Shown here: one piece after another, positions 6,608-44,507 of the stretch
Position numbering within the stretch: position 1 is the first letter of the stretch
Layout of the letters: each line of letters opens with the position of its first letter
Origin: Candidatus Nomurabacteria bacterium RIFCSPLOWO2_01_FULL_39_18
GTDB taxonomy: Bacteria; Patescibacteriota; Minisyncoccia; Phycocordibacterales; UBA9973
Length of the DNA: 64,000 nucleotides
Direction: 5' to 3'
Assembly: GCA_001787005.1 (NCBI GenBank)
Contig: MFUV01000010.1
Location: 9,955 to 73,954, forward strand
The notes under the pieces: model-generated
Database searches by the model: none
Told to the model about the DNA's origin: nothing
The model's input: only the letters and a program-made list of their open reading frames with translations
Translations under genes and position numbers: made by a program

Positions 6608-7695
6608 ATATATTGATTTTTTTGATAATACTATTAGTGCTGGTTCTTGTCCACGAGTTTGGGCATTTTTTTACAGCAAAAAGATTTGGTATCAGAGTTG
6701 ATGAATTCGGATTCGGTTTCCCGCCAAAATTATTTGGGATAAAAAAAGGAGAAACAGAGTATACTTTCAACCTTCTACCTTTGGGTGGTTTTGTTAAAAT
6801 TTTTGGTGAGAACCCAAACGAAGAGAACACAAATGGACCAGATGCGGATAGAAGCTTTATCAATAAACCTAAATGGAAGCAAGCAGTAGTCCTCTTTGCC
6901 GGAGTGCTGATGAATTTTTTATTGGCATGGGTGTTGTTTTCTTTTGGATTTATGTCTGGACTTCCAACTTCAGTCGGAAGCGGAGTTGGGAATGGAGAAC
7001 TCACAGATGTGAACTTGGTGGTAGTCTCTGTTTCACCGAATTCTCCCGCAGAAACTTCCGGACTAAAATCTGGCGATAAAATAGTTTTTATCGGGAAGGG
7101 TGGTCTTTCTACAACCTTTATTAGCCCAGAAACAGTGCGGTCTTTCGTAGCAGGAGGCGGAGAAATAGAAATAGGATACTTGCGTGGAGGAAATAAAACA
7201 GAAAATTTTACTAAAATTTATCCAAAAAAAAATGGGGGCGAGGAATATGTCATCGGAATAGCCATGGATCAAATAGGCATAGCCAGATTACCTGTTTTTA
7301 CCGCACTTTGGGAAGGAATGAAGTTAACCCTGCTTTTAACCAAAAGCACTGCGGTGGGGCTCTATACGCTTGTTGTGGAAGGATTGAAGGGCCAAGGAAG
7401 CCTAGATAGTATTACCGGTCCGATAGGTATGGTGGGGATTGTAGGGGATGCTTATGAATTTGGTTTTGTTTACCTGTTGTCTTTCGCGGCGCTAATTTCT
7501 ATTAATTTATCAATCATAAATCTTGTTCCATTTCCAGCGCTTGATGGCGGACGACTTTTCTTTTTGCTGATTGAAAAAATAAAAGGTTCACGGATCAATC
7601 CAAAAGTCACCAACATGACCAACATGATTGGTTTCGGTATTTTAATACTCTTAATGCTTGTTGTGACTTATCATGATGTGGTGAAGTTGTTTTAA
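6604..7695 (+). CDS. rseP: RIP site-2 zinc metalloprotease with PDZ domain
   Basis: HEFGHFF zinc motif, PDZ segment, C-terminal LDGG motif, multiple TM segments. Confidence 0.85.
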   Translation: MNILIFLIILLVLVLVHEFGHFFTAKRFGIRVDEFGFGFPPKLFGIKKGETEYTFNLLPLGGFVKIFGENPNEENTNGPDADRSFINKPKWKQAVVLFAGVLMNFLLAWVLFSFGFMSGLPTSVGSGVGNGELTDVNLVVVSVSPNSPAETSGLKSGDKIVFIGKGGLSTTFISPETVRSFVAGGGEIEIGYLRGGNKTENFTKIYPKKNGGEEYVIGIAMDQIGIARLPVFTALWEGMKLTLLLTKSTAVGLYTLVVEGLKGQGSLDSITGPIGMVGIVGDAYEFGFVYLLSFAALISINLSIINLVPFPALDGGRLFFLLIEKIKGSRINPKVTNMTNMIGFGILILLMLVVTYHDVVKLF

Positions 7696-7698
7696 AGC

Positions 7699-7742
7699 AC
7701 ATAAGTCAGACATGTGGGAACTCCCACATGTCTGACTTATGT
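7699..7742. repeat. 44-bp near-perfect palindrome; ACATGTGG palindromic-element family
   Basis: 20-bp arms cataagtcagacatgtggga / tcccacatgtctgacttatg; related copy in-frame inside topA at 22052. Confidence 0.6.
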
Positions 7743-7753
7743 AGTATAAAAGT

Positions 7754-8603: not shown

Positions 8604-11006
8604 ATGACTATAAAAATTTATAAAAATAAAACCAGAGTGGCGTTGCTCTGTGGCGGACCATCGCTTGAGCGAGGGATATCATTGAACTCTGCTCGAAGCT
8701 TACTTGATCATTTGGGCAGTTTAGACGTGGATATTATTCCTATTTATTTCAACGAACAAAAAAAGCCATACAAAATATCTACTGCACAACTTTACTCTAA
8801 CACCCCGAGCGATTTTGATTTCAAGCTGGGCGGAACAAGCAAGGAACTTTCTCTGTCTGCTCTAGTTCGTATCTTGAAAAATGTTGACATTGTTTTTCCA
8901 TGTATGCACGGCAGTTTCGGTGAAGATGGGAGAGTTCAAAGTTTTCTTGAGAAATATGATATTCCATTTATTGGTTCTTCCTCAAAATCTTGCAAAATGG
9001 CTTTTGATAAATATAAAGCCAATGAATATATCCGTTCACTTGGATTTTATGCGCCCAATTCTATTGTTATTAAAATTACCGACACAAAAAAAGAAATTGA
9101 GAAAAAAGTAAAACAGTTTTGGAAAACTGAAAGAATCACTCGCGCCATAGTGAAGCCTGCTTCTGGTGGCTCAAGTATCGGCGTGTTTTCTGTGGCAAAT
9201 GAAAAGGACGCAATGGAAGCTATCGAGAAATTATTTAGCAAACGCATGGACACTCGAGTGGTAGTGGAACATTTTGCGAAAGGCAAAGAATTCACGGTGA
9301 TTATTTTACAAAACAGATTCAATATGCCCGTCGCTATTTTGCCGACAGAAATGGAAATGGATTACGAGAAACATCAGTTTTTTGATTTTCGAAAAAAATA
9401 TTTACCGACCAGACAGGTAACCCATCATTGTCCACCAAGATTCAAAAACGAAATAATCGAAAAAATACAGATAGAAGCGGAGCAACTCTTCTCCGTCCTG
9501 GGAATGCGGGACTTCGCCCGCTTCGATGGCTTCTTAATGCCTGACGGCAATATCTGGTTTTCTGATTTTAATCCGATTTCTGGCATGGAACAAAATAGTT
9601 TTTTATTTCAACAAGCTTCCAGAATCGGCTTTTCCCACCAAGATCTTTTTCGCTTTATAATGAATAACGCATGTCTTCGACGAAATATTCCCATACAAAT
9701 TAAAAATAAATTTACAAGTGGGAAACGCAAGTCTGTTGCAGTAATTTTTGGTGGGGAAACGGCAGAAAAACAAGTCTCACTGATGAGCGGAACAAATGTT
9801 TGGTTAAAATTGCGCGGGTCGGAGATTTATAAACCTTTTCCTTATTTATTAACGAAGAATAAAGAAGTCTGGGAGCTCCCGTATTCTTATATCCTCAATC
9901 ACACTGTTGAAGAAATAGTTGAAAATGCTCAGAATGCCAAAAGAGATATCGAGAGACTTTTTTTCTTAATTGAAAAGGTAAAAATTAAATTATTTTTAAA
10001 TCAATCCGATACTACTGAAGAGTTTTTTATGCCAAAGAAATTTCAACTAAATCAGATATTAAAAAAGCACCCGTTTATTTTCCTTGCTTTGCATGGCGGA
10101 GTTGGTGAAGATGGTACCTTACAAAAAGTTCTAGAGAACAAAAAAATAAAATTTAATGGTTCGGGAAGTGTTGCGTCTCATTTGTGTATGGATAAATGGG
10201 AAACAAATGAAACGATTGGACAAGCCGAAATAAAAGGGGTGGGCGTGGTAAAACATGTATTATTTAAAATAAAAGATGTTCCTGAAAATTTTAATAATGA
10301 ACTCTTAGAAGCACACTGGAGAATGTTGATGCAGCGATTGGACGCAAAAACCATAATCGGTAAACCCCGGGGCGATGGCTGCTCGGCTGGCGTAGTCAGA
10401 CTTTTTAATAGAAAGGATTTAGCTACTTATATAACTCTGATCAGAAAAAAAGTTCCAGTAGCACTTCCAAATACTTTTACCAATCAGATGAACAGTATTG
10501 ATATGCCAGAAGGAGAAGTGCAGGATATAATTTTTGAATCCTTCGTCGAGACAGACAGATTAAAAGTTCATGGCAGTAAAATTATGTATACTCTAAAAAG
10601 TGGATATGTAGAAATGACTGTTGGCGTGTTGGAAGATCATGGACGAATCAAATCTTTCTCACCTTCAATTACTGTGGCAGAAATGGCGATACTTTCTGTG
10701 GAAGAAAAATTTCAAGGCGGCACGGGAGTTAATATTACGCCACCACCTCATGAAATTGTTTCCAATAAAAGTCTCAATAAGATAAAGAGTTTAGTCGAAA
10801 AAGTTAGCGAATGTGTCGGTATTCGTGGCTATGCGAGGATAGACATATTTGCTCATGTTAAAACCGGTAATATTATTGTGATTGAAATCAACACCTTGCC
10901 GGGGCTTACCCCTTCAACTGTGCTCTTTCATCAGGCATTAGCAGAAAATCCGCCAATTTATCCATTACAACTATTTGAGAAAATTATAAAAAATGCTAGA
11001 TATTAA
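8604..11006 (+). CDS. ddl: tandem-duplicated D-alanine--D-alanine ligase-like ATP-grasp protein (Ddl-Ddl fusion)
   Basis: 800 aa; N-half has the Ddl N-domain and ATP-grasp (IVKPASGGSSIGV..). C-half repeats the N-domain (KRKSVAVIFGGETAEKQVSLMSG) and has a second grasp core (KPRGDGCSAGV..ARIDIF..EINTLPGLTP). Confidence 0.7.
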   Translation: MTIKIYKNKTRVALLCGGPSLERGISLNSARSLLDHLGSLDVDIIPIYFNEQKKPYKISTAQLYSNTPSDFDFKLGGTSKELSLSALVRILKNVDIVFPCMHGSFGEDGRVQSFLEKYDIPFIGSSSKSCKMAFDKYKANEYIRSLGFYAPNSIVIKITDTKKEIEKKVKQFWKTERITRAIVKPASGGSSIGVFSVANEKDAMEAIEKLFSKRMDTRVVVEHFAKGKEFTVIILQNRFNMPVAILPTEMEMDYEKHQFFDFRKKYLPTRQVTHHCPPRFKNEIIEKIQIEAEQLFSVLGMRDFARFDGFLMPDGNIWFSDFNPISGMEQNSFLFQQASRIGFSHQDLFRFIMNNACLRRNIPIQIKNKFTSGKRKSVAVIFGGETAEKQVSLMSGTNVWLKLRGSEIYKPFPYLLTKNKEVWELPYSYILNHTVEEIVENAQNAKRDIERLFFLIEKVKIKLFLNQSDTTEEFFMPKKFQLNQILKKHPFIFLALHGGVGEDGTLQKVLENKKIKFNGSGSVASHLCMDKWETNETIGQAEIKGVGVVKHVLFKIKDVPENFNNELLEAHWRMLMQRLDAKTIIGKPRGDGCSAGVVRLFNRKDLATYITLIRKKVPVALPNTFTNQMNSIDMPEGEVQDIIFESFVETDRLKVHGSKIMYTLKSGYVEMTVGVLEDHGRIKSFSPSITVAEMAILSVEEKFQGGTGVNITPPPHEIVSNKSLNKIKSLVEKVSECVGIRGYARIDIFAHVKTGNIIVIEINTLPGLTPSTVLFHQALAENPPIYPLQLFEKIIKNARY

Positions 11007-16116: not shown

Positions 16117-16912
16117 ACCATCTAATTTTTTTGTCCCGTTTAAACCAAGTCATTTGTCGTTTGGCGTACTTTAGAGTTTGGCTCACCACCTTTTCATAAG
16201 TTGGGTTGAAGTATTCAAAGCCGAGCTTTTCTAGCCTCTTGTTAGAAACCCCAGCTTTTTTTAAATTTTTAATTTCATTAAGCAGTCCATCCTGAAACAT
16301 TTTTTTGACTCTTTTTTCTATTCTTTTCTTTAATTTATCTGCCGGTAAATACAAACCAGTTTTTATAAATTTATAATTTTGCGGGAAGATCTTCGGACGG
16401 GGGACTTTGCCTAGGGCTTTGGCGATTTCGATTGCCCGAATTAAGCGTACACCATTTTTTGAATCAATATTTTTTGCGCGAGCGGAGTCAAGTTTTTTAA
16501 GTATGACGAATAATGCGGCCGCTGATTTCGTCATCAGCTGGCGGCGTAGTTTCTGGTTGAGCGGAACTTCTGGGAGAATAATACCATTTACCACTGTATC
16601 AATATAGAATCCCGTTCCTCCACAAATTATTGGAATTTTTCCTCTTTTAATAATCTCCGCCATGGCGGAGATTGCGTGTTTTTGGTACTCGGCCACAGAA
16701 AACCCCCTTTTCGGATTCACAACATCAAGCAGATGATGCGGTATGCCCCGCATTTCTTTTTGAGTAATTTTCCCCGTGCCAATATCAAGACCTTTATAGA
16801 CCTGCCTAGAATCAGCAGAAATTATTTCTCCATTTATTTTCTTAGCAATTTTTACCGCTAGATCACTTTTCCCTGTGGCAGTTTGACCAAGAATCAAGAT
16901 AACTTTTTTCAT
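16064..16912 (-). CDS. miaA: tRNA dimethylallyltransferase
   Basis: ILGQTATGKSDLAV P-loop, ISADSRQVYKGLDIGTGK. Confidence 0.85.
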   Translation of the reverse strand: MKKVILILGQTATGKSDLAVKIAKKINGEIISADSRQVYKGLDIGTGKITQKEMRGIPHHLLDVVNPKRGFSVAEYQKHAISAMAEIIKRGKIPIICGGTGFYIDTVVNGIILPEVPLNQKLRRQLMTKSAAALFVILKKLDSARAKNIDSKNGVRLIRAIEIAKALGKVPRPKIFPQNYKFIKTGLYLPADKLKKRIEKRVKKMFQDGLLNEIKNLKKAGVSNKRLEKLGFEYFNPTYEKVVSQTLKYAKRQMTWFKRDKKIRWFTSPSSAFAWLQKQLAK

Positions 16913-18419: not shown

Positions 18420-19421
18420 ATGTCTAATTTATATTCCAATTCAATTTTTTGGATTGACACCGATAAAATAAAACCAAATCCATTCCAACCCAGACGAGAC
18501 TTCGACGAAGCGCGTCTTTCTGACTTAGCTATGTCGATCAAGCAATATGGAGTCCTCCAGCCGCTCACGGTCTCTCGAGTAGAAGTAGAGAAAGAGGGCG
18601 GGGGCCTCGTAACAGAATATGAATTAATCGCTGGAGAACGCAGACTTCGCGCGTCTCGGCTGGCGGGAGTCTCGCAAGTACCAGTAATAATTCGTACCGG
18701 GGATACAGCTACTATGAAGCTCGAACTCGCTATTATAGAAAATTTACAAAGAGAGGACCTAAATGTTGTAGACCGCGCGAGGGCATTCTTGCGACTAGTA
18801 AATGAATTTAAATTTACCCATAATGAAGTCGCGAAGAAGATTGGCAGAAGCAGAGAATATGTAACAAATTCTTTGCGAATTTTAACTTTGCCAGAAGAAA
18901 TAATTATTGGGTTATCGGAAGGCAAAATTACTGACGGCCATACTCGGCCACTTCTAATGCTCGCGGATCATCCGGAAGAGCAATTAGTGTTGTTTAAAGA
19001 AATTGTTTACAAAAAAATAACTGTACGCGAGGCAGAGAGGCTGGCCAGGCGGATAGCTTTCGATCGTGTTCGCAAAAAGGAGTTTATGCCTGACCCAGAA
19101 ATCACCGAGCTGGAAGAAGAATTTCAAGAGAAATTGGGAACCAGAGTCCACATAGACAGAAGCGAGCTAGGTGGACAGATTAAAATTGATTTTTTTTCTA
19201 CTGAAGACTTACGTTCTATTCTTGATTTAATTAAAAAATCAGAATTAAGTGGAAAACCCAGCCTACCTGCTCAAGCGGAAATGCTTGAAAAACACATTGC
19301 TAGTATGTCGGCGCAAGCGGGTAAGGAAGAAGATGACATACCTCTAGACGATCGAACAAAAGACGAAATCCAAAAGGCTGATGAGGCAGATCTGTATAAT
19401 ATTTCCAATTTTACCGTTTAA
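18420..19421 (+). CDS. parB: ParB/Spo0J-family partition protein (no adjacent parA)
   Basis: PNPFQPRRDFD, LIAGERRLRAS, HTH region NEVAKKIGRSREYVTN. Confidence 0.8.
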   Translation: MSNLYSNSIFWIDTDKIKPNPFQPRRDFDEARLSDLAMSIKQYGVLQPLTVSRVEVEKEGGGLVTEYELIAGERRLRASRLAGVSQVPVIIRTGDTATMKLELAIIENLQREDLNVVDRARAFLRLVNEFKFTHNEVAKKIGRSREYVTNSLRILTLPEEIIIGLSEGKITDGHTRPLLMLADHPEEQLVLFKEIVYKKITVREAERLARRIAFDRVRKKEFMPDPEITELEEEFQEKLGTRVHIDRSELGGQIKIDFFSTEDLRSILDLIKKSELSGKPSLPAQAEMLEKHIASMSAQAGKEEDDIPLDDRTKDEIQKADEADLYNISNFTV

Positions 19422-20959: not shown

Positions 20960-23269
20960 TTAGTCTGCGATCTTTTTCATTTTATCTGGTCGAAAGTTGG
21001 GACACGCCTTATTTGAACAGCGTTCAGGAATGGTTTTCGTGCCCTCCATCATTAGGCTTCCGCATTTGTCGCAGATTTTGCCGGTTGGCTTAGCTTTGAT
21101 TGCAAATTTACAATTTGGATAATTTGAACAGGAATAAAAAATTCCAAACCTGCCGCGACGTTCCGAGATGTCGCCCTTCTTGCAAGTGGGACAAATTACC
21201 CCTGTTCTTTTTTTAGCCTCTTCGGCTTCGTCTTTTTTAATAAATTTACATTTCGGATAACGCGAGCAAGAGATGAACGAGCCCGTGCCATCGCGCCTTT
21301 CTTTTACTACCAATTTTCCTCCATATACTTTTTTCTTTTTTTCGCCTGCCTGCGCAGGCAGACCACAGTCTGGGCACGTTTCGCCGGTTTCTTCTGGACC
21401 TTTTAGTTCCGTACCGTCTAGCATTAACGCGCCATTACATTCTGGAAACTTTTCACAAGAATAGAATTTGCCCCCACGAGAAAGTTTGATAATCATTTTT
21501 GCCCCGCATTTCGGACATTTTATATTCTCTGGAGCATTGCCCAGATTTGTGGCCTTTTCCAATTTTTCCTTTGATTTAACATCTTTGGAAAATGGTCCAT
21601 AGAAGTCTCGCAGGGTCTTTTCATATTCTCTTTCGCCTCGAGCTATCTCGTCTAGTTCATCTTCCATCTCGGCCGTGAAAGTGTCAGAGATATAATTTGC
21701 AAAATGTTTTTCTAAAAAGTCTGACACAACTTCTCCCACGTCGGTGGGGAACAAGGTCTTGCCTTCTTTCTTGACATAATCCCTCTCTTCAATCGTTCTC
21801 ATAATAGACGCATAGGTACTGGGTCTGCCGATGCCCCTTTGCTCCAATTCTTTAATAAGTCCCGCTTCACTATATCTGCCTGGCGGCTCGGTGAACTTCT
21901 CTTCGCTGGTTAAATCAAGCAACTTTAATTTCTCTCCCGCCTTACATAGAGGTAGTTCAACATCCTCACCCCGAGCTCCAGTGTCTACCGCAAGCCACCC
22001 TCCAAAAAGAAGTCGTGAACCAGTGGCAGAAAAATTCGGAAAGTCAAAGTCCCCACATGTCGGACATGTGGAGTCCACATGTCCGACATGTGGGACAACA
22101 TTTGCCGTAATTTTGGTCTTTAGTAATTTAGCATCAGTCATTTGAGAAGATACAGCACGCTCCCAGATGAGCCGGTAGAGCCTATCTTGGTCATCGCTCC
22201 CTGTGTGTAACTTTTCAACATGCGTCGGACGGATAGCTTCGTGCGCTTCCTGGGCATTTTTTGACTTAGTTTTATAAATTCTATTATGTGCATATTTGTC
22301 ACTGTATTCTTTTTTTATAAAAGATAATATTTGGTTTTGGGCGACAACGCCAAGATTCGTACTGTCCGTACGCATGTAGGTAATATGCCCCGCTTCGTAA
22401 AGTTTCTGCGCTATCTGCATTGTCCGCGAAGGAGAGTAGCCAAGCCGTGAACTGGCGGTTTGTTGAAGTGTTGAAGTAGTAAAGGGCGCACGAGGAACTC
22501 TTTTTTGTTCTGATTCTTTCACGTCTTTAACTACCCAATTTCCATTTTCCCCCGTCTCTAAAATCTTTTCAACCAATTTCTGATCACGAGGCTCTTCGGA
22601 ACATTCCAAAGTAATTTTTTCCCCTCCTGCCTGAGGAGGGGTGCCCTTTAGGGTGGGGTGGTGGGAGGTCTCGAAAAGTCCTAATATTTTCCAATATTTT
22701 TCTGGAACAAAAGCGCGGATTTCTCGTTCACGTTCCATTATTATGCGAAGCGCAGGGGATTGCACACGCCCGGCCGAGAGTCCATAACGAACTTTTTTCC
22801 AAATCAACCCAGAAAGATCGTAGCCAACCAATCGGTCTAAGACTCGCCGCGCTTCTTGTGCTTTGCGTAAATTTGTGTCAATTTTCCTCGGATTCTTTAG
22901 CGCTTCTTCTACAGCTTCTTTTGTAATCTCATGAAAGGCGACTCTTTCTATCGGCGCCTTAACCTTCTTATCTTCATCCAGAAGCGTTTCTATGTGCCAG
23001 GCAATAGCCTCTCCTTCACGGTCGGGATCTGTTGCTAAGATTATTTCACTTGCTTTCTCTGCCAAGACTCTCAAATCGTGAACAACTTTTTCTTTTCCCT
23101 TGGAAATTTCATAATGCGGAATAAAACCTCCTTCAATATTGATCGCTTGTTTGTTTGATTTCGGCAAATCGCGAATATGCCCGACTGACGCACGCACGGC
23201 AAATGCGCCCTCGAGATATTTTTCAATAGTCTTTGCTTTTGATGGTGATTCAACAATTAATAATTTCAT
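20960..23269 (-). CDS. topA: DNA topoisomerase I with C-terminal zinc ribbons
   Basis: Toprim MKLLIVESPSKAKTI, catalytic Tyr region GHITYMRTDS, multiple CPxCG ribbons. Confidence 0.9.
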   Translation of the reverse strand: MKLLIVESPSKAKTIEKYLEGAFAVRASVGHIRDLPKSNKQAINIEGGFIPHYEISKGKEKVVHDLRVLAEKASEIILATDPDREGEAIAWHIETLLDEDKKVKAPIERVAFHEITKEAVEEALKNPRKIDTNLRKAQEARRVLDRLVGYDLSGLIWKKVRYGLSAGRVQSPALRIIMEREREIRAFVPEKYWKILGLFETSHHPTLKGTPPQAGGEKITLECSEEPRDQKLVEKILETGENGNWVVKDVKESEQKRVPRAPFTTSTLQQTASSRLGYSPSRTMQIAQKLYEAGHITYMRTDSTNLGVVAQNQILSFIKKEYSDKYAHNRIYKTKSKNAQEAHEAIRPTHVEKLHTGSDDQDRLYRLIWERAVSSQMTDAKLLKTKITANVVPHVGHVDSTCPTCGDFDFPNFSATGSRLLFGGWLAVDTGARGEDVELPLCKAGEKLKLLDLTSEEKFTEPPGRYSEAGLIKELEQRGIGRPSTYASIMRTIEERDYVKKEGKTLFPTDVGEVVSDFLEKHFANYISDTFTAEMEDELDEIARGEREYEKTLRDFYGPFSKDVKSKEKLEKATNLGNAPENIKCPKCGAKMIIKLSRGGKFYSCEKFPECNGALMLDGTELKGPEETGETCPDCGLPAQAGEKKKKVYGGKLVVKERRDGTGSFISCSRYPKCKFIKKDEAEEAKKRTGVICPTCKKGDISERRGRFGIFYSCSNYPNCKFAIKAKPTGKICDKCGSLMMEGTKTIPERCSNKACPNFRPDKMKKIAD
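21347..21360. repeat. 14-bp perfect palindrome tgcctgcgcaggca inside a topA zinc-ribbon loop (encodes LPAQAGEKK)
   Basis: Self-complementary; sequence context ttttttcgcctgcctg resembles the element at 22621. Confidence 0.4.
22052..22094. repeat. 43-bp perfect palindrome embedded in-frame in topA; ACATGTGG element family
   Basis: cccacatgtcggacatgtgga-g-tccacatgtccgacatgtggg; encodes the symmetric peptide PHVGHVDSTCPTCG. Confidence 0.6.
22621..22670. repeat. GC-rich palindromic element embedded in-frame in topA
   Basis: cccctcct-gcc-tgaggagggg tgcc... closely resembles the dus insertion cccctctcct-tgaca-aggagagggg tgcc; encodes GTPPQAGGEKI. Confidence 0.5.
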
Positions 23270-26523: not shown

Positions 26524-27572
26524 AAAGTTTTTGGGCAAAACTTAGCAGACCTATCTTCTGCTTGGCGCCGATGGCAGATGTAACGGACTGCGCCTTCAGG
26601 CAAATAATTGCGAAGTATAGCGCAGATACCCGCCCGACCGAACGGTCGTTCGGGCGGGTTTTTTTTACTGAATTTGTCTCAGCAGATGGATTAGCCCATC
26701 CCATAGCCAGAGAGAAACTTTTAATTGATTTAAAATATGGGCAAAACGAGCATCCAATAGTGGCGCAAATTTTTGGCGGGAAACCAGAAAATATAAAAAT
26801 AGCTTCTACGCTATGCAAGAATCTTGGCTTTGATGGCATCGATATCAATATGGGCTGTCCGGATAAATCTGTAGAAAAACAATGCGCTGGCGCCGCGTTG
26901 ATGAAAGATCCCATGCTTGCAAGAGAAATAATCCGCGTGGCCAAGGAGGGCGGGGGTGGACTACCCATTTCAGTAAAAACTCGTGTTGGCTACAACCCGC
27001 CCGGCGGATATGCCAGTCGGGCAGGCAAAAATGAAATGGAATCATGGGTAAAAACACTTCTCTCTGAAGATTTGGCGGCGTTAACTATACATTTACGCAC
27101 TCGCAAAGAGATGAGTCTCGTTCCCGCGCATTGGGATCTAATGAAGAGGATAGTTGAGATTAGAAATGAAATGAAGGTAGAAACTTTAATAATTGGTAAT
27201 GGTGACGTCATGGACACTGACGAAGCAAGGAGGAAGTGTGAAGAAACTGGGTGCGATGGGGTAATGTTGGGTAGAGCGATGTTTGGGAATCCGTGGCTGT
27301 TCACCTCACCCCCAACCCCTCTCCTTGACAAGGAGAGGGGTGCCAAAGGCGAGGTGAGGTCAATCCAGGAAAAGCTACAAGTCATGCTTGAGCACACCAA
27401 ACTTTTTGAAGAAATGCTGGGAAAGCACAAAAATTTCGCTATAATGAAAAAACATTTTAAGGCGTATGTCAGTGGCTGGGATGGCGCTAAAGAACTTCGA
27501 ATGAAGCTAATGGAGACAGAAAATGCCTCGCGGGTAGAAGCCATAGTTAATGATTTTTTAAGTAAAACCTGA
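26520..27572 (+). CDS. dus: tRNA-dihydrouridine synthase (carries two in-frame palindromic insertions)
   Basis: LAPMADVTDCAFR, IDINMGCPDKSVEKQCAGAALM catalytic Cys region, GRAMFGNPWLF. Confidence 0.8.
   Translation: MKSFWAKLSRPIFCLAPMADVTDCAFRQIIAKYSADTRPTERSFGRVFFTEFVSADGLAHPIAREKLLIDLKYGQNEHPIVAQIFGGKPENIKIASTLCKNLGFDGIDINMGCPDKSVEKQCAGAALMKDPMLAREIIRVAKEGGGGLPISVKTRVGYNPPGGYASRAGKNEMESWVKTLLSEDLAALTIHLRTRKEMSLVPAHWDLMKRIVEIRNEMKVETLIIGNGDVMDTDEARRKCEETGCDGVMLGRAMFGNPWLFTSPPTPLLDKERGAKGEVRSIQEKLQVMLEHTKLFEEMLGKHKNFAIMKKHFKAYVSGWDGAKELRMKLMETENASRVEAIVNDFLSKT
26628..26666. repeat. GC-rich hairpin followed by a T8 run, embedded in-frame in dus
   Basis: acccgcccg..cgaacg-gt-cgttcg..gggcgggt then tttttttt; encodes ADTRPTERSFGRV, which sits where Dus proteins normally have a short loop. 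Confidence 0.45.
27301..27362. repeat. 62-bp nested GC-rich palindromic element embedded in-frame in dus
   Basis: Outer stem acctcacc/ggtgaggt, inner stem cccctctcctt-gac-aaggagagggg; encodes the extra peptide TSPPTPLLDKERGAKGEVRS between the conserved PWLF and IQEKL. Confidence 0.55.
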
Positions 27573-27650: not shown

Positions 27651-28718
27651 ATGGAACAACATTTAGCATTATATAGGAAGTATCGCCCCAAGACTTTCAG
27701 TGAAGTCTTGGGACAAGACCATATTGTCAAAGTTTTAGAGAGCTCGATTGATACCAAAAAGGTCTCACATGCATACCTTTTTGTTGGCTCTCGTGGCACA
27801 GGTAAGACTTCTGTCGCCAGGATTTTCGCCTCTGAAATCGGTGTATCTCCAAACGATCTCTATGAAATAGACGCGGCTTCAAATAGGGGAATTGAAGATA
27901 TAAAATTACTGCGCGATGGTGTGCGTGTTTTACCTTTTGATTCAAAATATAAAGTCTACATCATTGATGAAGTCCATATGCTTTCCAAGGATGCTTGGGG
28001 GGCGCTTTTAAAAACTCTCGAGGAGCCGCCCAAGCACGTCATCTTTATTCTTGCTACCACCGAATTTCACAAAGTTCCCGAGACTATCATTTCTCGCTGC
28101 CAAGTTTTTACTTTTAGGAAAGCTTCGGATGCTGTAAATAAAAAAATGCTCCTGGATGTGGCAAAAAAAGAAGGTTTTGAATTAGAAAGTAGCGGGGCTG
28201 AACTTTTAGCAATTCTAGGAGATGGATCTTTCCGTGATGCGCAGGGTGAGCTTCAGAAGGTATTAAATTTTTCCCTCGGCCATAGACCTACGGGCGAGGC
28301 AAAAGGTAAGAAAATAAATAGAGAAGATGTAGAGAAAATAACCGGCGCTCCTAAAACAACCCTGGTGAATAATTTTATTTCTGCTATCGCTGAGAAAGAT
28401 TTAGAGAAGGGAATTTCAGCGGTAAAAGTGGCAGTGCAAGAGAACTTAGATATGAAGCTTTATTTAAAACTCATTATTGAAAAGCTACGAATCGTAATAA
28501 TTCTAAAATATGCACCAAAAATAAAAGACGAAATGGCGGGGGACTTAAGTGGAACGGATTTAGAATTTTTGAAGGGTTTGGTAAAAGAAGATAAAACCGG
28601 CATGCTCCGCTCCCAAGCACTTGCTACTCTGCTTGAAGCATATCAAAACATGGATAATGCGTTTATCACGGAATTGCCACTCGAACTTGCGTTGGTGAAA
28701 ATAATAAGTAAAGAATAA
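27651..28718 (+). CDS. dnaX: DNA polymerase III gamma/tau subunit (short form)
   Basis: YRPKTFSEVLGQ, GSRGTGKTS Walker A, DEVHML, SRC sensor motifs. Confidence 0.85.
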   Translation: MEQHLALYRKYRPKTFSEVLGQDHIVKVLESSIDTKKVSHAYLFVGSRGTGKTSVARIFASEIGVSPNDLYEIDAASNRGIEDIKLLRDGVRVLPFDSKYKVYIIDEVHMLSKDAWGALLKTLEEPPKHVIFILATTEFHKVPETIISRCQVFTFRKASDAVNKKMLLDVAKKEGFELESSGAELLAILGDGSFRDAQGELQKVLNFSLGHRPTGEAKGKKINREDVEKITGAPKTTLVNNFISAIAEKDLEKGISAVKVAVQENLDMKLYLKLIIEKLRIVIILKYAPKIKDEMAGDLSGTDLEFLKGLVKEDKTGMLRSQALATLLEAYQNMDNAFITELPLELALVKIISKE

Positions 28719-35247: not shown

Positions 35248-38145
35248 ATGATTTCCCGAATATTCGTAATGCTGAAAAATGGGGCGACGAGAGCAGATTC
35301 TTATCTTATCGATTCTAAATTCTTGAAAAAAGAGTTAATCAAACTTGCGGAAGCGCTGACTAATCCGATCCTAGAAAATTTCTCTATCAACAACTTGGAG
35401 GTCTTGCCTCCAAATGGAGGCAAGACCTCCAAGTTTACTTATGCGATTGAAATTGGTTTCAAGCCTGGGGTGACCGATAATGTTGGACACACCGTCGAGG
35501 AAATTGCCAGAGATCTGCTTGGTGTAAAAAAGAATCCTGACTTCCACGTGTATACTTCAAAAATTGTTTTCATCTCTCTTTCAAAAAAAGATGCGGAAAA
35601 ATACGCTCTTACTTTGTATAACCCACTAATTGAAAAATCACTGATAGTACCAGTGAAGAACAAAAAGATAAGTTTGCCTAAAAAAGTGCCAAAGGTTGTC
35701 CTTAAAAAAAGAAAACCGGTTATAAATGTTTCTCTTAAGGTTTCTGATGAAGAACTCATTAAAATCGGCAAAGAGGGAATAAAGGATGGAGACGGCACAC
35801 GCAGAGGGCCATTGGCGCTCGACCTGGCATCTATGAAAACCATTCAGGGATATTTTAAAAAATTAAAAAGAAGTCCGACAGATATAGAACTTGAGTCCCT
35901 GGCGCAAACTTGGTCGGAACATTGCAAACATACCATTTTCGCCAATCCGATTGATAATATAAAAGATGGCTTATATAAAACTTATATAAAAGGCGCAACC
36001 AATTTAATACGCAAACAAAAAGGTAAAAATGATTTCTGCGTTTCTGTTTTCTCTGACAACTCTGGTGGAATTATTTTTGATAAGGACTATTTAATCACAC
36101 ATAAGGTTGAGACGCACAACAGCCCCTCGGCACTTGACCCGTTTGGCGGAGCTATTACCGGCATCGGAGGGGTAAATCGTGATGCCATTGGCTTCGGACT
36201 TGGCGCCAAACCAGTTGCGAATACTTATGGATTCTGCCTCGCTCCACCAGATGAAAAAAGAAAATTATTTAGGGATAAAGACAGAACTCAAGCCTTGCTA
36301 CCCGCAAAAAGAATTATGGAAGGAGTAATAAAGGGGATTAATGTCGGAGGAAATTGTTCCGGTATTCCGACTCTTTCCGGATTTATTAAATTCGATGACA
36401 GATTTAGAGGCAAACCTTTAGTTTTCGCTGGAACAGTTGGATTAATCCCGAGAAAGAATGGTAGTAAACTTCTACACGAGAAGAAGGCAAGGGTGGGGGA
36501 CTATATTGTGATGGTTGGCGGAAAGGTAGGGCTTGATGGTATACATGGAGCGACTTTTTCTTCGGTAACTCTTGATTCAACTTCGCCCGCAACCGCAGTG
36601 CAAATTGGCGACCCCATAACTCAAAAAAAGTTAAGCGATGCGATAGTCAAAGAAGCCAGGGGATTAAATTTATACAACAGCATCACGGACGACGGCGCGG
36701 GAGGACTGTCTTGTTCCGTGGCAGAAATGGCAAAAGAATGTGGTGGAGCAAAAGTAATGCTTGAAAAGGTGCCCTTGAAATACCCAGGACTGCGCCCTTG
36801 GGAAATCTGGATTTCGGAATCCCAGGAGCGGATGACACTCTCTGTGCCAAAAAAAAAGTGGAAGAAGTTTAATGAATTGATGAAAAGTCGGGGAGTAGAA
36901 GCTACGGTGATAGGAAAATTCACAAATTCAGGGAATTGTGTTGTGAATTATAAAGGCAAAAAGATAATGGACCTAGATATGGAATTCCTGCATAATGGAC
37001 TTCCCAAACAGCATTTAACCACGATTCCATATTTACAAAATAATAAAGAGCCTCAAATTCCCAAAAATTCATCACTTACAAAAACTTTGGAAAATTTGCT
37101 GGGAAATAATAACATCAGCGGTTTTTCTTATATCTCACAACAATATGACCATGAGGTGCAAGCGTCTTCTGTATTAAAACCTCTCTCGGGCAGGGGTCGC
37201 ATCAACACCGATGCGCAAGTTTTCCGGCCAGTTCTAAGTTCGGAAAAGGGCGTTATTCTGTCTACCGGAGTTTATCCTTCATATGGAGACATCAATACTT
37301 ATTACATGGCGGCTTGCGCGTTAGATACAGCAATTCGAAATATTATTGCTTCTGGTGGGTCACTATCTAATCTTGCGATCTTGGATAATTTCTGTTGGTG
37401 CTCGTCGTATGATAAAACTCGCTTGGCACAGCTTGTGGACGCAGTAAAGGCATGCTACGACTACGGAGTGGGCTACGGCACGCCTTTTATATCCGGTAAG
37501 GACAGCATGTTTAATGATTTTAGGGGTTATGATGAGAAGGGTAATCCTATCGCTATTTCTATCCCGCCAACACTGCTCATCTCGGCAATTGGAGTGGTGC
37601 CTGATATTTATAAAATAATTTCTCCTGAATTTAAAAATGTTGGAGACGTGATTTACTTGCTCGGAAAGACGGATGATGAGCTTGGTGGAAGTGAGTACTA
37701 TAAATCACTAAAGGCGGTTGGGAATGATGTGCCGAAAGTTAATTTGGAAAAAAATTTAAAAACATATTTAGCGCTTGAAAGGGCTATCCAGAAAGAATTG
37801 GTTGCTTCTTCGATTTCTGTAACTTCTGGGGGACTGGCAATAGCGCTGGCTAAGACATGTGTCGGTGGAATGCTCGGATGTAATATTAGCGTCAGGGGCA
37901 TGCCTGGAAGTTCAAAATCGGCCGATGCGAAGCTTTTTTCCGAAAGCCAGGGAAGGATTCTGGTATCTATATCGCCCCAAAATATAAGCGCATTTGAAAA
38001 AATCATAAAAAATATTCCTTATGCTAAAATGGGGAAAGTTGTAAAAGACGGAAAATTCACAATTACAGACAAAACAAAAATAGTTAAAACCGATGTTAAA
38101 AAACTGTACAAAATTTATCACAGATTTTCAGAAAAAATGAAATGA
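35248..38145 (+). CDS. purL: phosphoribosylformylglycinamidine synthase subunit PurL with N-terminal PurS-like domain
   Basis: 965 aa; N-terminal segment FKPGVTDNVGHTVEEIARDLLG resembles PurS; AIR-synthase-related repeats follow (ETHNSPSALDPFGGAITGIGG). Confidence 0.85.
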   Translation: MISRIFVMLKNGATRADSYLIDSKFLKKELIKLAEALTNPILENFSINNLEVLPPNGGKTSKFTYAIEIGFKPGVTDNVGHTVEEIARDLLGVKKNPDFHVYTSKIVFISLSKKDAEKYALTLYNPLIEKSLIVPVKNKKISLPKKVPKVVLKKRKPVINVSLKVSDEELIKIGKEGIKDGDGTRRGPLALDLASMKTIQGYFKKLKRSPTDIELESLAQTWSEHCKHTIFANPIDNIKDGLYKTYIKGATNLIRKQKGKNDFCVSVFSDNSGGIIFDKDYLITHKVETHNSPSALDPFGGAITGIGGVNRDAIGFGLGAKPVANTYGFCLAPPDEKRKLFRDKDRTQALLPAKRIMEGVIKGINVGGNCSGIPTLSGFIKFDDRFRGKPLVFAGTVGLIPRKNGSKLLHEKKARVGDYIVMVGGKVGLDGIHGATFSSVTLDSTSPATAVQIGDPITQKKLSDAIVKEARGLNLYNSITDDGAGGLSCSVAEMAKECGGAKVMLEKVPLKYPGLRPWEIWISESQERMTLSVPKKKWKKFNELMKSRGVEATVIGKFTNSGNCVVNYKGKKIMDLDMEFLHNGLPKQHLTTIPYLQNNKEPQIPKNSSLTKTLENLLGNNNISGFSYISQQYDHEVQASSVLKPLSGRGRINTDAQVFRPVLSSEKGVILSTGVYPSYGDINTYYMAACALDTAIRNIIASGGSLSNLAILDNFCWCSSYDKTRLAQLVDAVKACYDYGVGYGTPFISGKDSMFNDFRGYDEKGNPIAISIPPTLLISAIGVVPDIYKIISPEFKNVGDVIYLLGKTDDELGGSEYYKSLKAVGNDVPKVNLEKNLKTYLALERAIQKELVASSISVTSGGLAIALAKTCVGGMLGCNISVRGMPGSSKSADAKLFSESQGRILVSISPQNISAFEKIIKNIPYAKMGKVVKDGKFTITDKTKIVKTDVKKLYKIYHRFSEKMK

Positions 38146-42477: not shown

Positions 42478-43885
42478 ACCACGAAACATGAGCGACCTTA
42501 AAGAAAAATGCGGGATTGTTGGTATTTATGGCAAAGGTTTGCCGGTTTCAAGGCTTGCCTTTTTTTCTTTATTTGCTCTCCAGCATAGAGGCCAGGAAGC
42601 TTCTGGCATAACAACCAATGATGATGACAAACTTCACACACACAAGGGCGTAGGACTTGTGGCCCAAGTTTATAAAGAGAAGGATATAGAAAAATTACAC
42701 GGATATATCGGGATAGGACATAACAGGTACTCCACTTCAGGCGGAGGAGCGTTAGATCATGCTCAACCAGTTCTAAATAGTGATTTTTCTTTCGCTCTTG
42801 CCCATAACGGAAATTTGCCGAGTGTTAAAGCGCTAGAAAAATTTCTTTCATCCAAAAAAAAATTAAAAAGGGATCGTTCAGATTCAGAGCTTATTGCTGA
42901 TGCTATTGATTTCTATATTAAAAAAGGGAACTCGGTATCAGAAGCAGTTAAAAAAATTTTTCCGCTTATTACTGGAGCCTTTGCCCTAGTAATGATGGAT
43001 AAAGATACGCTGGTTGCGGTACGAGATATTTATGGTATGAGGCCGCTTTCGCTCGGAAAGATAGGCGGGGGATATATCTTCGCATCAGAGACATGCGCTA
43101 TTTCTACTGTCGGGGCAAAGTTTGTTCGGGATGTAAATCCGGGAGAAATGATTGTTATAAATAAAAATGGCATAAAAAGTATAACATTGGCAAAGGCAAA
43201 TCCAAAACATGATATTTTTGAATATGTATATTTCGCTCGACCCGATAGTACGATGAATGGAAAATTAATTTACCAAGTTAGGAAAAATTTCGGCAAGGAG
43301 CTAGCGCATGAATTTAATTTAAATGTTGACACAGTGGTGCCGGTGCCGGACACGGCAATGCCCGTTGCCTTGGGTTATAGCGAAGTTTCTGGCATTCCCA
43401 TGGAAATGGCATTAGTGAAGAATCGTTACGTGCATCGGACATTCATTGAACCGGATCAAAAATCTCGTCGGAATAGCGTCGCCCTTAAATTAATACCCCT
43501 AAGGGAAATATTAAAAGGGAAAAAAATCGCAGTCATTGATGATTCTATTGTTCGTGGTAACACAAGCAGAAAATTAGTCAAGACATTGTTTAAATCCGGG
43601 GCAAAAGAAGTGCATTTATTGATTTCCTCGCCGCCTATCCGCTATCCAGACTTTTATGGAATCGACACCCCAAAACAAAAAGAATTGATCGCTTCAAGTA
43701 AAACAGTCGAGCAAATTAGGAAATTTTTAGGTGCTACTTCACTACATTTTTTATCTCTTGATGGCTTAATAAAGTCCATTGGCTTGCCAAAAGACAAGCT
43801 TTGCACTTCATTCTTTACCGGCGTTTATCCGATTGATCTAAAAGAACGAAAAAAAGAAATAAATTATGACGTCCCAAAAACCTAA
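42461..43885 (+). CDS. purF: amidophosphoribosyltransferase
   Basis: N-terminal CGIVGIYG Ntn nucleophile, PRTase motif VIDDSIVRGNT. Confidence 0.9.
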   Translation: MAERNKPRNMSDLKEKCGIVGIYGKGLPVSRLAFFSLFALQHRGQEASGITTNDDDKLHTHKGVGLVAQVYKEKDIEKLHGYIGIGHNRYSTSGGGALDHAQPVLNSDFSFALAHNGNLPSVKALEKFLSSKKKLKRDRSDSELIADAIDFYIKKGNSVSEAVKKIFPLITGAFALVMMDKDTLVAVRDIYGMRPLSLGKIGGGYIFASETCAISTVGAKFVRDVNPGEMIVINKNGIKSITLAKANPKHDIFEYVYFARPDSTMNGKLIYQVRKNFGKELAHEFNLNVDTVVPVPDTAMPVALGYSEVSGIPMEMALVKNRYVHRTFIEPDQKSRRNSVALKLIPLREILKGKKIAVIDDSIVRGNTSRKLVKTLFKSGAKEVHLLISSPPIRYPDFYGIDTPKQKELIASSKTVEQIRKFLGATSLHFLSLDGLIKSIGLPKDKLCTSFFTGVYPIDLKERKKEINYDVPKT

Positions 43886-44507
43886 AATAAAGTTGGCGAT
43901 TCTTATTTCTGATGCTGGCACTGGCACGAACTTGAAAGCAATAATCGATGGGGTTAATGCGGGAACAATTAACGCAGAAATTGTCGCAGTAATTTCTGAT
44001 ACAATAGAGGCGCTAGGATTAGAATATGCTAGAAAAAATAATTTAAGAATCGAAATTTGCGGAAAAAAAGAAGTCCTACTCTCGATTTTACAAAAATTAA
44101 ATCCCGATTATGTTTGTTTGGCTGGCTGGAAGCAAATAATTCTTAACGAAGTTATACTTGCATATCCAAACAAAATTCTGAATCTACACCCCGGACTGGT
44201 TCCTGATACAATCAATGGAAGCCTGCCTGCGCAGACAGGTGTAAAAAACCCTGATGGTACAAACGCGCTTTGGAATAAGGGAATGCTAACCACAAAAGCT
44301 ATCAGAAATTTCTTAGACCAGAAAAAAACTTATGCTGGGTCATCTATTCACTTTTTAACCTTGGATTTCGACTTTGGACCGGTTTTAGGCAGAACTTTTG
44401 AAAAAGTTGAACCCCATGATAATGTTGAATCATTGTATTCAAGACTTAAGAAAAAAGAAAATCAGCTGTATGTCGAAGTTTTAGAAAAATTATGTAAAAA
44501 ATTATAA
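43866..44507 (+). CDS. purN: phosphoribosylglycinamide formyltransferase
   Basis: KLAILISDAGTGTNLKAII, NLHPGLVP motif (formyl transferase His/Asp region). Confidence 0.8.
   Translation: MTSQKPKIKLAILISDAGTGTNLKAIIDGVNAGTINAEIVAVISDTIEALGLEYARKNNLRIEICGKKEVLLSILQKLNPDYVCLAGWKQIILNEVILAYPNKILNLHPGLVPDTINGSLPAQTGVKNPDGTNALWNKGMLTTKAIRNFLDQKKTYAGSSIHFLTLDFDFGPVLGRTFEKVEPHDNVESLYSRLKKKENQLYVEVLEKLCKKL

Follow-up and report, generated by a model that had tools for sequence, protein, structure and literature searches.

Palindromic elements of probable REP/REPIN type translated within the topA gene of a Nomurabacteria bacterium

Known palindromic repeats in genes and genomes

The closest described counterparts of the elements analyzed here are those of the REP/REPIN-RAYT systems, in which imperfect palindromes of 20–25 bp, dispersed and mostly extragenic, occur as inverted doublets able to fold into a long hairpin. 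The same units flank the gene of a Y1/HUH transposase (RAYT), and the repeat co-varies with the transposase lineage. REPINs were described by Bertels and Rainey in 2011 (PMC3116915). Two described REP superfamilies carry a GTAG or a CGTC end tag, and binding and cleavage of the single-stranded repeat is known only for the RAYT of E. coli, in vitro (PMC3733652). REPs lying in frame inside genes, most of them dimers and with replication and repair genes overrepresented, were compiled by Di Nocera and coworkers in 2013, and the RPEs of Rickettsia are an earlier in-frame example (PMC3733652). Both RPE-1 and RPE-4/6, as well as the intragenic REPs, are in-frame palindromes residing in conserved, often essential genes, frequently as dimers, with a bias toward DNA metabolism, and they are tolerated as surface peptides; the elements reported below resemble them in these respects, although their position at the protein surface is only predicted. 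Since in-frame REPs and RPEs have already been described, the topA elements belong to a known kind.

Two other groups of elements are similar in part. MITEs such as Nezha and Correia/NEMIS are likewise non-autonomous, palindromic, dispersed, and at times co-translated, but they are 70–300 bp long and have terminal inverted repeats and target-site duplications generated by DDE transposases, none of which were seen here. The MITE identity was rejected, since our elements are only 18–58 bp in size and show no consistent target duplication. The double-hairpin elements found in mitochondria of Allomyces and the GC clusters of their yeast counterparts are short G+C-rich sequences in an A+T-rich genome that form one long or two short hairpins and are sometimes in-frame coding. 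They differ in being organellar and unrelated in sequence, and no transposase dedicated to them is known.

Three in-frame palindromes in topA

The analyzed window is a 64-kb stretch of DNA from a Nomurabacteria (Patescibacteria) bacterium with a tiny genome. The topA gene (positions 20960–23269, minus strand), identified by its ORF, Pfam domains, and TopA homology, encodes a DNA topoisomerase I of 769 aa with Toprim, Topoisom_bac, and three Zn_ribbon_Top1 domains, which matches E. coli TopA (4RUL) with an E-value of 1.6e-136. Three in-frame palindromes reported within this gene in the initial annotation were all found in place. Chance is excluded as the source of the long palindromes: eight hairpins in the window have stems of 13 bp or more versus 0.17 expected, and four have stems of 17 bp or more versus none across 30 dinucleotide shuffles. 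The palindromes of 10–11 bp at 27687–27712 (the RPKTFSEVLGQ motif of DnaX) and 16652–16673 (MiaA) were judged to be ordinary coding sequence and not insertions.

The element F1 (22052–22094) had been described as a perfect 43-bp palindrome, and its 21+1+21 structure was verified. It consists of two inverted copies of the 21-bp unit CCCACATGTCSGACATGTGGG (22052–22072 and 22074–22094), a REPIN-like arrangement, and each arm is a 9+1+9 palindrome in its own right. As single-stranded DNA it folds with an energy of -25.8 kcal/mol (z = -7 to -9), and the corresponding RNA fold has -40.6 kcal/mol. The minus (coding) strand of F1 encodes the peptide PHVGHVDSTCPTCG, corresponding to residues 393–406 of TopA.

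The second element, F2 (22621–22670, plus strand), can be aligned with a dus copy and an intergenic copy of this genome, as well as with a REP located upstream of a RAYT gene. It comprises the hairpin CCCCTCCT-GCCTG-AGGAGGGG followed by TGCCCTTTAGGG and the tail GGTGGGAGGTC. The hairpin, CCCCTCCTGCCTGAGGAGGGG, occupies 22621–22641 and has an 8-bp stem and a 5-nt loop, while the G-rich tail extends up to 22670; the 5' outer arm is missing in the topA copy. The peptide is SHHPTLKGTPPQAGGE (residues 202–217), the hairpin and tail encode (S)HHPTLKGTPPQAGGE, and the gene is here about 36 nt longer than the empty orthologues. Taken alone, the fold of this copy is non-significant (z about -1.2 to -1.6), and for this reason F2 was judged by its membership in a family rather than by energy.

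The third element, F3 (21345–21362), is an 18-bp palindrome, CCTGCCTGCGCAGGCAGG, with one mismatch in topA and a perfect 16-mer at 21346–21361; like that of F2, its fold is no better than those of shuffled sequences. It encodes LPAQAG (residues 637–642), and the allele containing it is exactly 18 nt longer than the short one. The placement of the palindrome at 21347–21360 in the loop of the CPDC(G) zinc ribbon was borne out, while the supposed echo of the PPQAGGEK peptide came down to a shared CAGGCAGG. The evidence also favors three element families instead of the two proposed, the 18-bp LPAQAG palindrome having its own dispersed copies.

Comparison with about 200 TopA orthologues (75%–92% identity) revealed that the three element positions are indel hot spots that are mostly empty. 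The modal length of TopA is 737–738 aa among 120 homologues with 80%–89% identity, and the surplus in the 769-aa protein maps to these hot spots. Site A (F2) was empty in 89, site B (F1) in 79, and site C (F3) in 74 of 121 orthologues, and the inserts are mostly missing even from the closest ones (89%–92% identity). E. coli TopA has a 16-residue gap opposite site B; none of the three insert peptides was found in this protein, nor are they conserved in distant TopA sequences lacking palindromes. In a predicted AF2 model the inserts fall between strand pairs 191–200/218–223, 381–392/413–421, and 626–631/652–657, with a pLDDT below 50 for the inserts and a poor overall average of 56.7; built on an alignment of 30 sequences, the model was used for strand and loop topology only. 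Going by the E. coli TopA domain boundaries, sites A and B presumably lie in domain D2, and the third site belongs to the C-terminal zinc ribbon.

Among 80 orthologous loci, the DNA of site B comprised more than 12 unrelated perfect palindromes. Some orthologues differed by compensated fourfold DNA variants, encoding PHVGHV..TCPTCG versus PHVRHV..ICLTCG versus PQVRLV..TSLTCG. These variants show palindromy being kept by compensatory changes while the peptide is altered, as would result from selection acting on the DNA and not on the peptide. The junctions of filled and empty alleles, compared at site B and for F3 (preceded by GGC/GAC and followed by GAA), revealed no consistent target-site duplication, target motif, or signature. 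The sequence GCGGAAGCAAAA in one orthologous locus (L015) could conjecturally be an excision footprint. TopA alleles bearing LPAQAG have common flanking residues (EKKKKVYGG versus EKKGKSGGG); therefore, recombination or repeated loss, rather than independent insertion, may explain some of the scatter. Five assemblies of the source population were identical base for base at the elements, with no presence/absence polymorphism. One assembly, L215, departs directly after the F2 element, which could reflect recombination or an assembly chimera.

Dispersed copies and their association with RAYT genes

The F1 unit matches the window solely at 22052–22094, with no matches expected. A related intergenic doublet with a GTCAGAC variant is located between the gene of an rseP-like M50 peptidase and map (7690–7751, core 7699–7742; -22.8 kcal/mol, z = -11.6). 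Its kinship with F1, noted initially, is supported by the common sequence GTCNGACATGTGGGA. F1 is not abundant in the window, whose 64 kb contain a single doublet plus a second, diverged one. Across metagenomes, the F1 19-mer CCACATGTCGGACATGTGG occurs in at least 119 contigs (139–145 sites); a viral origin was rejected, only one viral contig containing it. Just 21% of the sites are within ORFs of at least 200 aa, which account for 66% of bases; the family is thus mostly extragenic, whereas all three topA copies are intragenic. The unit ends TTCCC/GGGAA are conserved across contigs, and across other genes the F1 DNA is translated in all three frames.

A full-length F2 copy is present in frame in dus (27303–27360, plus strand), with the outer arms ACCTCACC/GGTGAGGT, the inner hairpin ACCCCTCTCC..GGAGAGGGGT, a peptide of about SPPTPLLDKERGAKGEVR, and a significant fold (-21.6 kcal/mol, z = -6.0). 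The relationship between the topA and dus elements suggested earlier proved correct: both contain the hairpin, TGCC, a mini-hairpin, and the GGTGAGGTC tail. A near-identical intergenic F2 is located on the same contig about 5 kb past the right end of the window (L207, 8825–8915), which brings the F2 copies of the source genome to three within about 84 kb. F2 modules also occur at TopA sites A and B in either orientation. Another palindromic in-frame insert in dus, ACCCGCCCGACCGAACGGTCGTTCGGGCGGGT (26628–26659, plus strand), was revealed by the palindrome scan; opposite its peptide TRPTERSFGR, the Dus protein of T. maritima (1VHN) has a gap of 10 aa.

Three TopA sites carry the F3 18-mer, which was also found in purN and a DnaX orthologue, and an F3-like copy is present in scpA. 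In-ORF copies are read in the LPAQAG frame in 14 of 17 cases, or in 16 of 17 when M/PPA[HQ]AG variants are included. The second copy in the window, CCTGCCTGCGCAGACAGG (44222–44239), encodes SLPAQTG in frame in a 213-aa ORF (43866–44507), read as purN-like from a single motif, HPGLVP. The affiliation of F3 among mobile elements is uncertain. The palindrome scan also revealed a 44-bp perfect palindrome in frame in purL (35392–35435, plus strand), a doublet of TTGGAGGTCTTGCCTCCAA encoding NLEVLPPNGGKTSKF; with a compensated G/C change, it recurs at TopA site B in two orthologous loci (L044 and L050).

Scanning the window against Rfam yielded three tRNAs only, and the elements match no RNA family. 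Arrays with a period of about 75–81 nt that contain the F1 unit were observed in three other contigs (L141, L145, and L176). They prompted a CRISPR/TIGR-like reading of F1, which was rejected for topA, in view of the single doublet, the absence of arrays from the window, and the lack of an Rfam match.

Units of F1 were found 10–47 bp from both ends of RAYT-type transposase genes in contigs of related Patescibacteria (L087, L120, L189, and L144/L092). The transposase is represented by a 232-aa protein with the motifs YHIYNRG, MPNHFHL, and YIHLNPV, in which HUH and Tyr motifs are present. It scored 47.5 bits (E = 1.6e-12) against the NCBIfam model REP_Tyr_transpos, for which the curated cut-off is 80 bits. 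Scores against Pfam Y1_Tnp (cut-off 23 bits) were 27.9 bits for L090 and 22.2 and 21.0 bits for L087 and L189, most homologues being just below or at the cut-off; comparison with PDB sequences gave only spurious matches to TRPV4. At least 7,500 RAYT homologues exist, some labeled RayT by JGI, and NCBI records of them include Ca. Nomurabacteria. All five RAYT loci selected by protein homology alone (L201, L203, L204, L205, and L206) had flanking and internal co-varying palindromes; in L201, L203, L204, and L205, co-varying variants are placed around the gene as the F1 units are. The GTCAGAC variant of the intergenic doublet at 7690–7751 agrees with the REPs that border the RAYT gene of Nomurabacteria in L201. 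The link of F2 to RAYT is formed by one short contig, L206, in which a hairpin resembling F2 and sharing the GGTGAGGTC tail of the dus copy lies upstream of the gene. Judging from these matches, at least two of the three topA palindromes appear to belong to repeat families that flank RAYT genes in related bacteria. For F3 and the other site B families, a motif search among 270 RAYT homologues found no such link. Searches by tblastn with eight RAYT queries detected no RAYT in the 64-kb window, about 20 kb of the adjoining contig, or the topA loci L001–L080, and the cognate transposase in the source genome is therefore unproven.

The RAYT genes themselves contain an in-frame copy of their own REP about five residues past the catalytic HUH motif, and this copy co-varies with the flanking REPs. 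It is missing from more distant RAYT relatives. Such an internal, co-varying copy distinguishes these genes from the described REP/REPIN systems and appears to be new. Several other features also differ. The F1 consensus TTCCCACATGTCSGACATGTGGGAA, the F2 consensus, and the F3 18-mer have no GTAG or CGTC end tag; the doublet spacer is 0–6 nt instead of tens of nucleotides; the host belongs to the Patescibacteria and has a very small genome; and the transposase is no more than a distant relative of the curated RAYTs, scoring below the NCBIfam cut-off. Compared by size, the elements are 18–58 nt (43, 50, and 18 bp in topA) versus 100–150 nt for RPE-1. Furthermore, a single gene harbors three inserts, its loops are occupied by many different families in close relatives, and there is a transposase link, while none is visible for RPEs or CGTC REPs.

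Origin and significance of the insertions

We consider it likely that the three topA palindromes represent small mobile elements of the REP/REPIN type, non-autonomous and kept only in permissive beta-hairpin tips. Judging by its structure, F1 joins two 21-bp REP units in inverted orientation, and F2 is likewise best described as a REP consisting of a hairpin and a tail. The elements were considered REP/REPIN-like because the F1 unit is dispersed and mostly outside long ORFs, and because F1 and a relative of F2 flank RAYT genes. The suggestion that an essential gene tolerates insertions of dispersed palindromes agrees with their absence from most orthologues and the presence of copies in other genes and intergenic DNA. 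Three such insertions were initially regarded as striking; the insertions themselves are confirmed, while in-frame REPs and Rickettsia RPEs provide a precedent (PMC3733652).

Origin in place, without transposition, was considered as an alternative, in which strand switching on a hairpin template would, as the DNA is replicated, extend and perfect a short quasi-palindrome in a loop-coding segment. The arms are perfect and evolve in concert, they are palindromes themselves, as snap-back synthesis could produce, the same loops are repeatedly hot, and target duplications were not seen. Nevertheless, this scenario is unlikely, since elements of 40–58 nt that are identical or nearly so are shared by unrelated loci and intergenic regions within this genome, and the F1 unit, with its conserved ends, recurs in numerous contigs and flanks RAYT genes. 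Still less probable is an assembly or amplification artefact, to which we assign a negligible chance. Chimeric inverted joins in metagenomes make palindromes a known class of artefact, and some population contigs stop or switch haplotype right after F2, but the same elements at the same codons, always in frame, were recovered in independent MAGs and assemblies of many studies, and the five population assemblies agree in every base.

Selection on the gene or its product could also be invoked. The inserts might be selected protein features, with palindromy as a by-product: PHVGHVDSTCPTCG has an HxxH...CxxC pattern with H-x2-H-x5-C-x2-C spacing suggestive of a metal site in a zinc-ribbon enzyme, and PAQAG could be a flexible linker, consistent with the nearly constant reading frame of F3. 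This is very improbable given that the peptides differ radically across orthologues with palindromy retained, compensated changes alter at least two residues, most orthologues, including the closest, lack the inserts, and other genes translate this DNA in each of the three frames. A functional nucleic acid signal in topA under selection for expression, such as a translation pause, an RNase or attenuator site, or protein-binding DNA, merits equally little credence. The F1 hairpin would be very stable in mRNA, topA is itself a supercoiling gene, and REPs elsewhere have been proposed to act in mRNA stability and supercoiling (PMC3733652). Against this, close relatives differ in whether an element is present and in its sequence, nothing specific to a position being conserved, no Rfam family was matched, and the folds of F2 and F3 do not exceed those of shuffles.

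If the elements are mobile REPs, RAYT would recognize the single-stranded hairpins, cut, and rejoin them, as the E. coli enzyme does in vitro, so that units and doublets could spread. Most landings in genes would be lethal and purged. The survivors would be those with a length that is a multiple of three, no stop codon, and a position at a permissive beta-hairpin tip, where they would be translated as neutral or near-neutral surface peptides. Resident elements probably attract later ones or are overwritten by them, which would create hot spots with fast turnover.

REP/RAYT elements are a known sort of selfish DNA, not previously described in the Nomurabacteria/Patescibacteria lineage, in which the present results place them; for the Candidate Phyla Radiation, the literature searched contained no report of REP/REPIN-RAYT systems. 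Within genomes nearly devoid of intergenic space, such elements would persist by being translated inside essential genes, which could account for much of the otherwise puzzling differences in length that close orthologues show in topA, dus, dnaX, and further genes. Annotators and users of structure predictors should be aware that these loop peptides probably represent selfish DNA and not functional motifs. Rates of REP gain, loss, and replacement could be estimated in a natural setting at the topA hot spots, and the RAYT-internal REP may serve as a handle by which the loop peptide predicts the cognate repeat of a lineage. It is conceivable, although we regard it as rather doubtful, that this internal REP is functional and not a hitch-hiker, acting in autoregulation or as a master or template that sets the REP of the lineage, and that the REP families overwriting loops of topA, dus, dnaX, purL, and other genes form a self-specifying transposase-repeat system and a major ongoing cause of variation in protein length within such minimal genomes.

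Palindromic elements in topA and their copies in the genome

The topA gene (20960-23269, minus strand) encodes a 769-aa protein with Toprim, Topoisom_bac, and three Zn_ribbon_Top1 domains, which matched E. coli TopA with E = 1.6e-136. The three in-frame palindromes reported in it by the initial annotation were found at the given coordinates, and that reading is supported by our data, although the elements represent three families rather than two. F1 (22052-22094) is a perfect 21+1+21 inverted repeat, each arm being itself a 9+1+9 palindrome, and encodes PHVGHVDSTCPTCG on the coding strand. F2 (22621-22670) comprises an 8-bp stem with a 5-nt loop (to 22641) followed by a G-rich tail and encodes SHHPTLKGTPPQAGGE, while F3 (21345-21362) is an 18-mer family unit containing a perfect 16-mer (21346-21361) and is read as LPAQAG. 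The fold of F1 had energies of -25.8 kcal/mol (ssDNA) and -40.6 kcal/mol (RNA), and no shuffle was equally stable. Folds of F2 and F3 showed no advantage over shuffles, and therefore the reality of these elements depends on family membership. In the window, eight hairpin stems of at least 13 bp were observed versus 0.17 expected, and four of at least 17 bp versus none in 30 dinucleotide shuffles. The G+C content of the elements was 58%–72% versus 38% for the window. The F1 doublet (TopA aa 393-406) encodes a H-x2-H-x5-C-x2-C motif within PHVGHVDSTCPTCG, whose spacing could bind metal; it is probably incidental, since it is lost in variants from other genomes.

All three belong to dispersed repeat families. 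A 44-bp perfect palindrome in purL (35392-35435, AACTTGGAGGTCTTGCCTCCAAATGGAGGCAAGACCTCCAAGTT), in frame near the N-terminus and encoding NLEVLPPNGGKTSKF, also occurs, with one compensated change, within topA of two relatives (L044 and L050) at the position of F1. The topA copy of F2 lacks one outer arm; a full-length copy is present in frame in dus (27303-27360, outer arms ACCTCACC/GGTGAGGT), and a nearly identical intergenic one lies on the same contig about 5 kb past the right end of the window (8825-8915 of the adjoining segment L207). Relative to T. maritima Dus, dus has two more insert-like segments, namely, a palindrome with a 13-bp stem (26628-26659, TRPTERSFGR) and a decayed G+C-rich quasi-palindrome (26997-27026, PPGGYASRAG). 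Three TopA positions, a DnaX orthologue, and a window ORF resembling purN (44222-44239, SLPAQTG) contain the F3 18-mer, and an F3-like compound copy occurs in scpA of the same genome (L207:3282-3310, CCTGCCCGCGCAGGCGGGGCGCAGGCAGG). Of 17 in-ORF copies of F3, 14 read as LPAQAG and 16 are in the LPAQAG frame. Orthologues of neighboring genes contain more lineage-specific inserts, in which palindrome-derived peptides recur (e.g., PARNASGIADAGG, TTDVGRLDPGRPTS, and ASTRGDSSTRGG).

The C-terminal tail of ParB (19250-19340) reads SLPAQAE...SAQAGKE, with MPAQAG, PPAQAG, or MPAHAG there in orthologues; these segments look like decayed F3 copies. An intergenic perfect palindrome with a 17-bp stem (57198-57234, GTGGATTGTGCGACATT-GAA-AATGTCGCACAATCCAC; -20 kcal/mol, z = -9) had no relatives in the fetched loci. 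A 22-bp palindrome in miaA (16652-16673, AATCTCCGCCATGGCGGAGATT, AISAMAEI) occupies the same, apparently orthologous, position in L001, L011, L015, and L070, and appears to be conserved coding sequence rather than an insertion.

Insertion hot spots among TopA orthologues

The set of 120 TopA homologues, named as Ca. Nomurabacteria, Paceibacterota, or Patescibacteria, showed 80%–89% identity (83%–92% over a 30-sequence MAFFT alignment) and lengths of 733–799 aa with a mode of 737–738. Nearly all length variation was restricted to a few alignment positions, and F2, F1, and F3 lie exactly on three of these: site A (query residues about 202–217), site B (about 393–408), and site C (637–642), with the short allele present in 89, 79, and 74 of 121 orthologues, respectively. 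By alignment with E. coli TopA, in which 16 residues are missing at site B, sites A and B presumably fall within domain D2; the tip of a C-terminal zinc ribbon forms site C. In the AF2 model, which was poor overall (mean pLDDT 56.7), every insert had a pLDDT below 50 and was flanked by two strands that pair with each other; the variable positions occupied in frame are thus probably beta-hairpin tips. The closest relative (P0001, 89%–92% identity) has none of the three inserts and carries at site C another palindromic insert, unlike that of the window. When the hot spots were left out of a neighbor-joining tree, the states of A, B, and C were scattered on it and freely combined. Since LPAQAG alleles have the flanking residues EKKKKVYGG in common, recombination or repeated loss may add to this scatter, beside new insertion.

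Codon alignment of 80 orthologous genome loci showed that the perfect palindromes at site B differ between genomes, with more than 12 sequence types, including ttgcggatgtcggacttccgc-aagcta-gcggaagtccgacatccgcaa, tgcggaagccttgcttccgcg-tact-..., gccccaaagacggtcttcgggga-gc-..., tcagcggttgaaccgctgggta, tcggacgttggacgtcc, F2-type hairpins, and F2 modules in both orientations (PLLNKEGVGGGNS and HLALKGTPPKKGGE). F1 variants showed fourfold compensation, both arms changing from CCCACATGTCGGACATGTGGG to CCCACAAGTCAGACTTGTGGG, which turns the peptide PHVGHV..TCPTCG into PQVRLV..TSLTCG. The DNA hairpin is maintained by compensation, and conservation at the F1 site concerns palindromy, not the peptide. 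Almost all long elements are inverted doublets of a self-palindromic unit, the architecture of REPINs (PMC3116915).

In another assembly of the source population (L215:2410-3120), the start of topA equals the window over 659 nt save one mismatch; identity ends 9 nt beyond the end of F2 and is followed by 15 mismatches in about 50 nt, which could mean that recombination took place at the repeat or that the assembly is chimeric there. Two further contigs of this population stop shortly past F2.

Association with RAYT transposases and origin of the inserts

The F1 19-mer CCACATGTCGGACATGTGG matched at least 119 metagenome contigs. Among the matches listed, contigs mostly had 32%–40% G+C, the conserved consensus was TTCCCACATGTCSGACATGTGGGAA, and 21% of sites were within ORFs of at least 200 aa, versus 66% of bases. 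All three frames are used in long ORFs (PHVGHVG, SHMSDMWE, and PTC[RP]TCG). Clustering of ORFs adjoining F1 units revealed a 232-aa protein with the motifs YHIYNRG, MPNHFHL (HUH), and YIHLNPV (Tyr). It matched NCBIfam REP_Tyr_transpos with E = 1.6e-12 and 47.5 bits (curated cut-off 80) and Pfam Y1_Tnp with 21–28 bits (cut-off 23). Among its at least 7500 homologues, several bear the JGI name "REP element-mobilizing transposase RayT," and NCBI records include Ca. Nomurabacteria, Paceibacterota, and Zambryskibacteria. F1 units lie 10–47 bp from its gene on both sides (L087, L120, L189, and L144/L092), a REPtron arrangement. All five further loci picked by RAYT homology alone had flanking palindromes co-varying with lineage: the GTCAGAC variant known from window 7699-7742 in L201 (Nomurabacteria), CCCACCAGTCSGACTGGTGGG in L203, AGCCATAAGTCGGACTTATGGCT in L204, CCCCTCCCCGACACCTGGTGTCGGGGAGGGG in L205, and CCCCCCTGCGTAGCAGGGGG then ..GGTGAGGTC in L206. 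In related bacteria, the link of F1 to RAYT is thus firm, and that of F2, whose architecture and tail are present in the L206 repeat, is tentative; for F3, no such link was found. RAYT genes were absent from the window, 20 kb of adjoining contig, and the 80 topA loci. Arrays with a period of about 75–81 nt (L141:1-600, L145:1900-2120, and L176:660-840), where the F1 unit alternates with the related CCACAGGTCCGACCT... and other conserved blocks, are not obviously CRISPR-like.

These data support the view that the topA elements are mobile palindromes of the REP/REPIN type, which have settled in permissive loops and are translated there. The evidence agrees less well with in-situ hairpin-templated growth, a selected function of the peptides, regulatory hairpins, or assembly artefacts. 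By analogy with the E. coli enzyme, the only one for which this action has been demonstrated (summarised in PMC3733652), RAYT would act on single-stranded hairpins. Intragenic landings of the mobile palindromes would be purged by selection unless their length is a multiple of three and they are stop-free and in a permissive loop; new elements would cluster at or overwrite older ones, producing hot spots.

Intragenic REPs, including Rickettsia RPE-4/6, are known in several species; more than half are dimers or groups encoding 20–30 aa, and many are within replication and repair genes (Di Nocera et al. 2013, PMC3733652). The topA inserts are of the same kind but differ in lineage (Patescibacteria, for which the literature searched contained no report of such elements), in lacking GTAG or CGTC tags, in the near-zero doublet spacer, and in density, a single essential gene having three inserts and one of its loops being occupied by more than 12 families across close relatives.

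REP copies within RAYT genes

A more novel lead than the topA inserts is a REP copy inside the RAYT gene, of which no earlier description was found in the literature searched. About five residues past HUH, this RAYT clade has a loop 8–15 aa longer than that of distant relatives (PNHFH-LLVREKxEGG-IS.FM.K), and the extra residues derive from an in-frame copy of the REP belonging to that lineage, which is either functional or a hitch-hiker. The loop peptides are PHMSDMWG (encoded by CCCACATGTCGGACATGTGGG), SHQSDWWE (CCCACCAGTCGGACTGGTGGG), SHKSDLW (...ATAAGTCGGACTTAT...), PSPTPGVGEG (CCCCGACACCTGGTGTCGGGG), and TPLLRRGVKG (F2-like REP). Internal and flanking REPs co-vary at the DNA level in six loci, the internal copies being at L189:413-433, L201:3273-3297, L203:680-704, L204:2773-2791, L205:814-846, and about codons 90–100 of the L206 RAYT.
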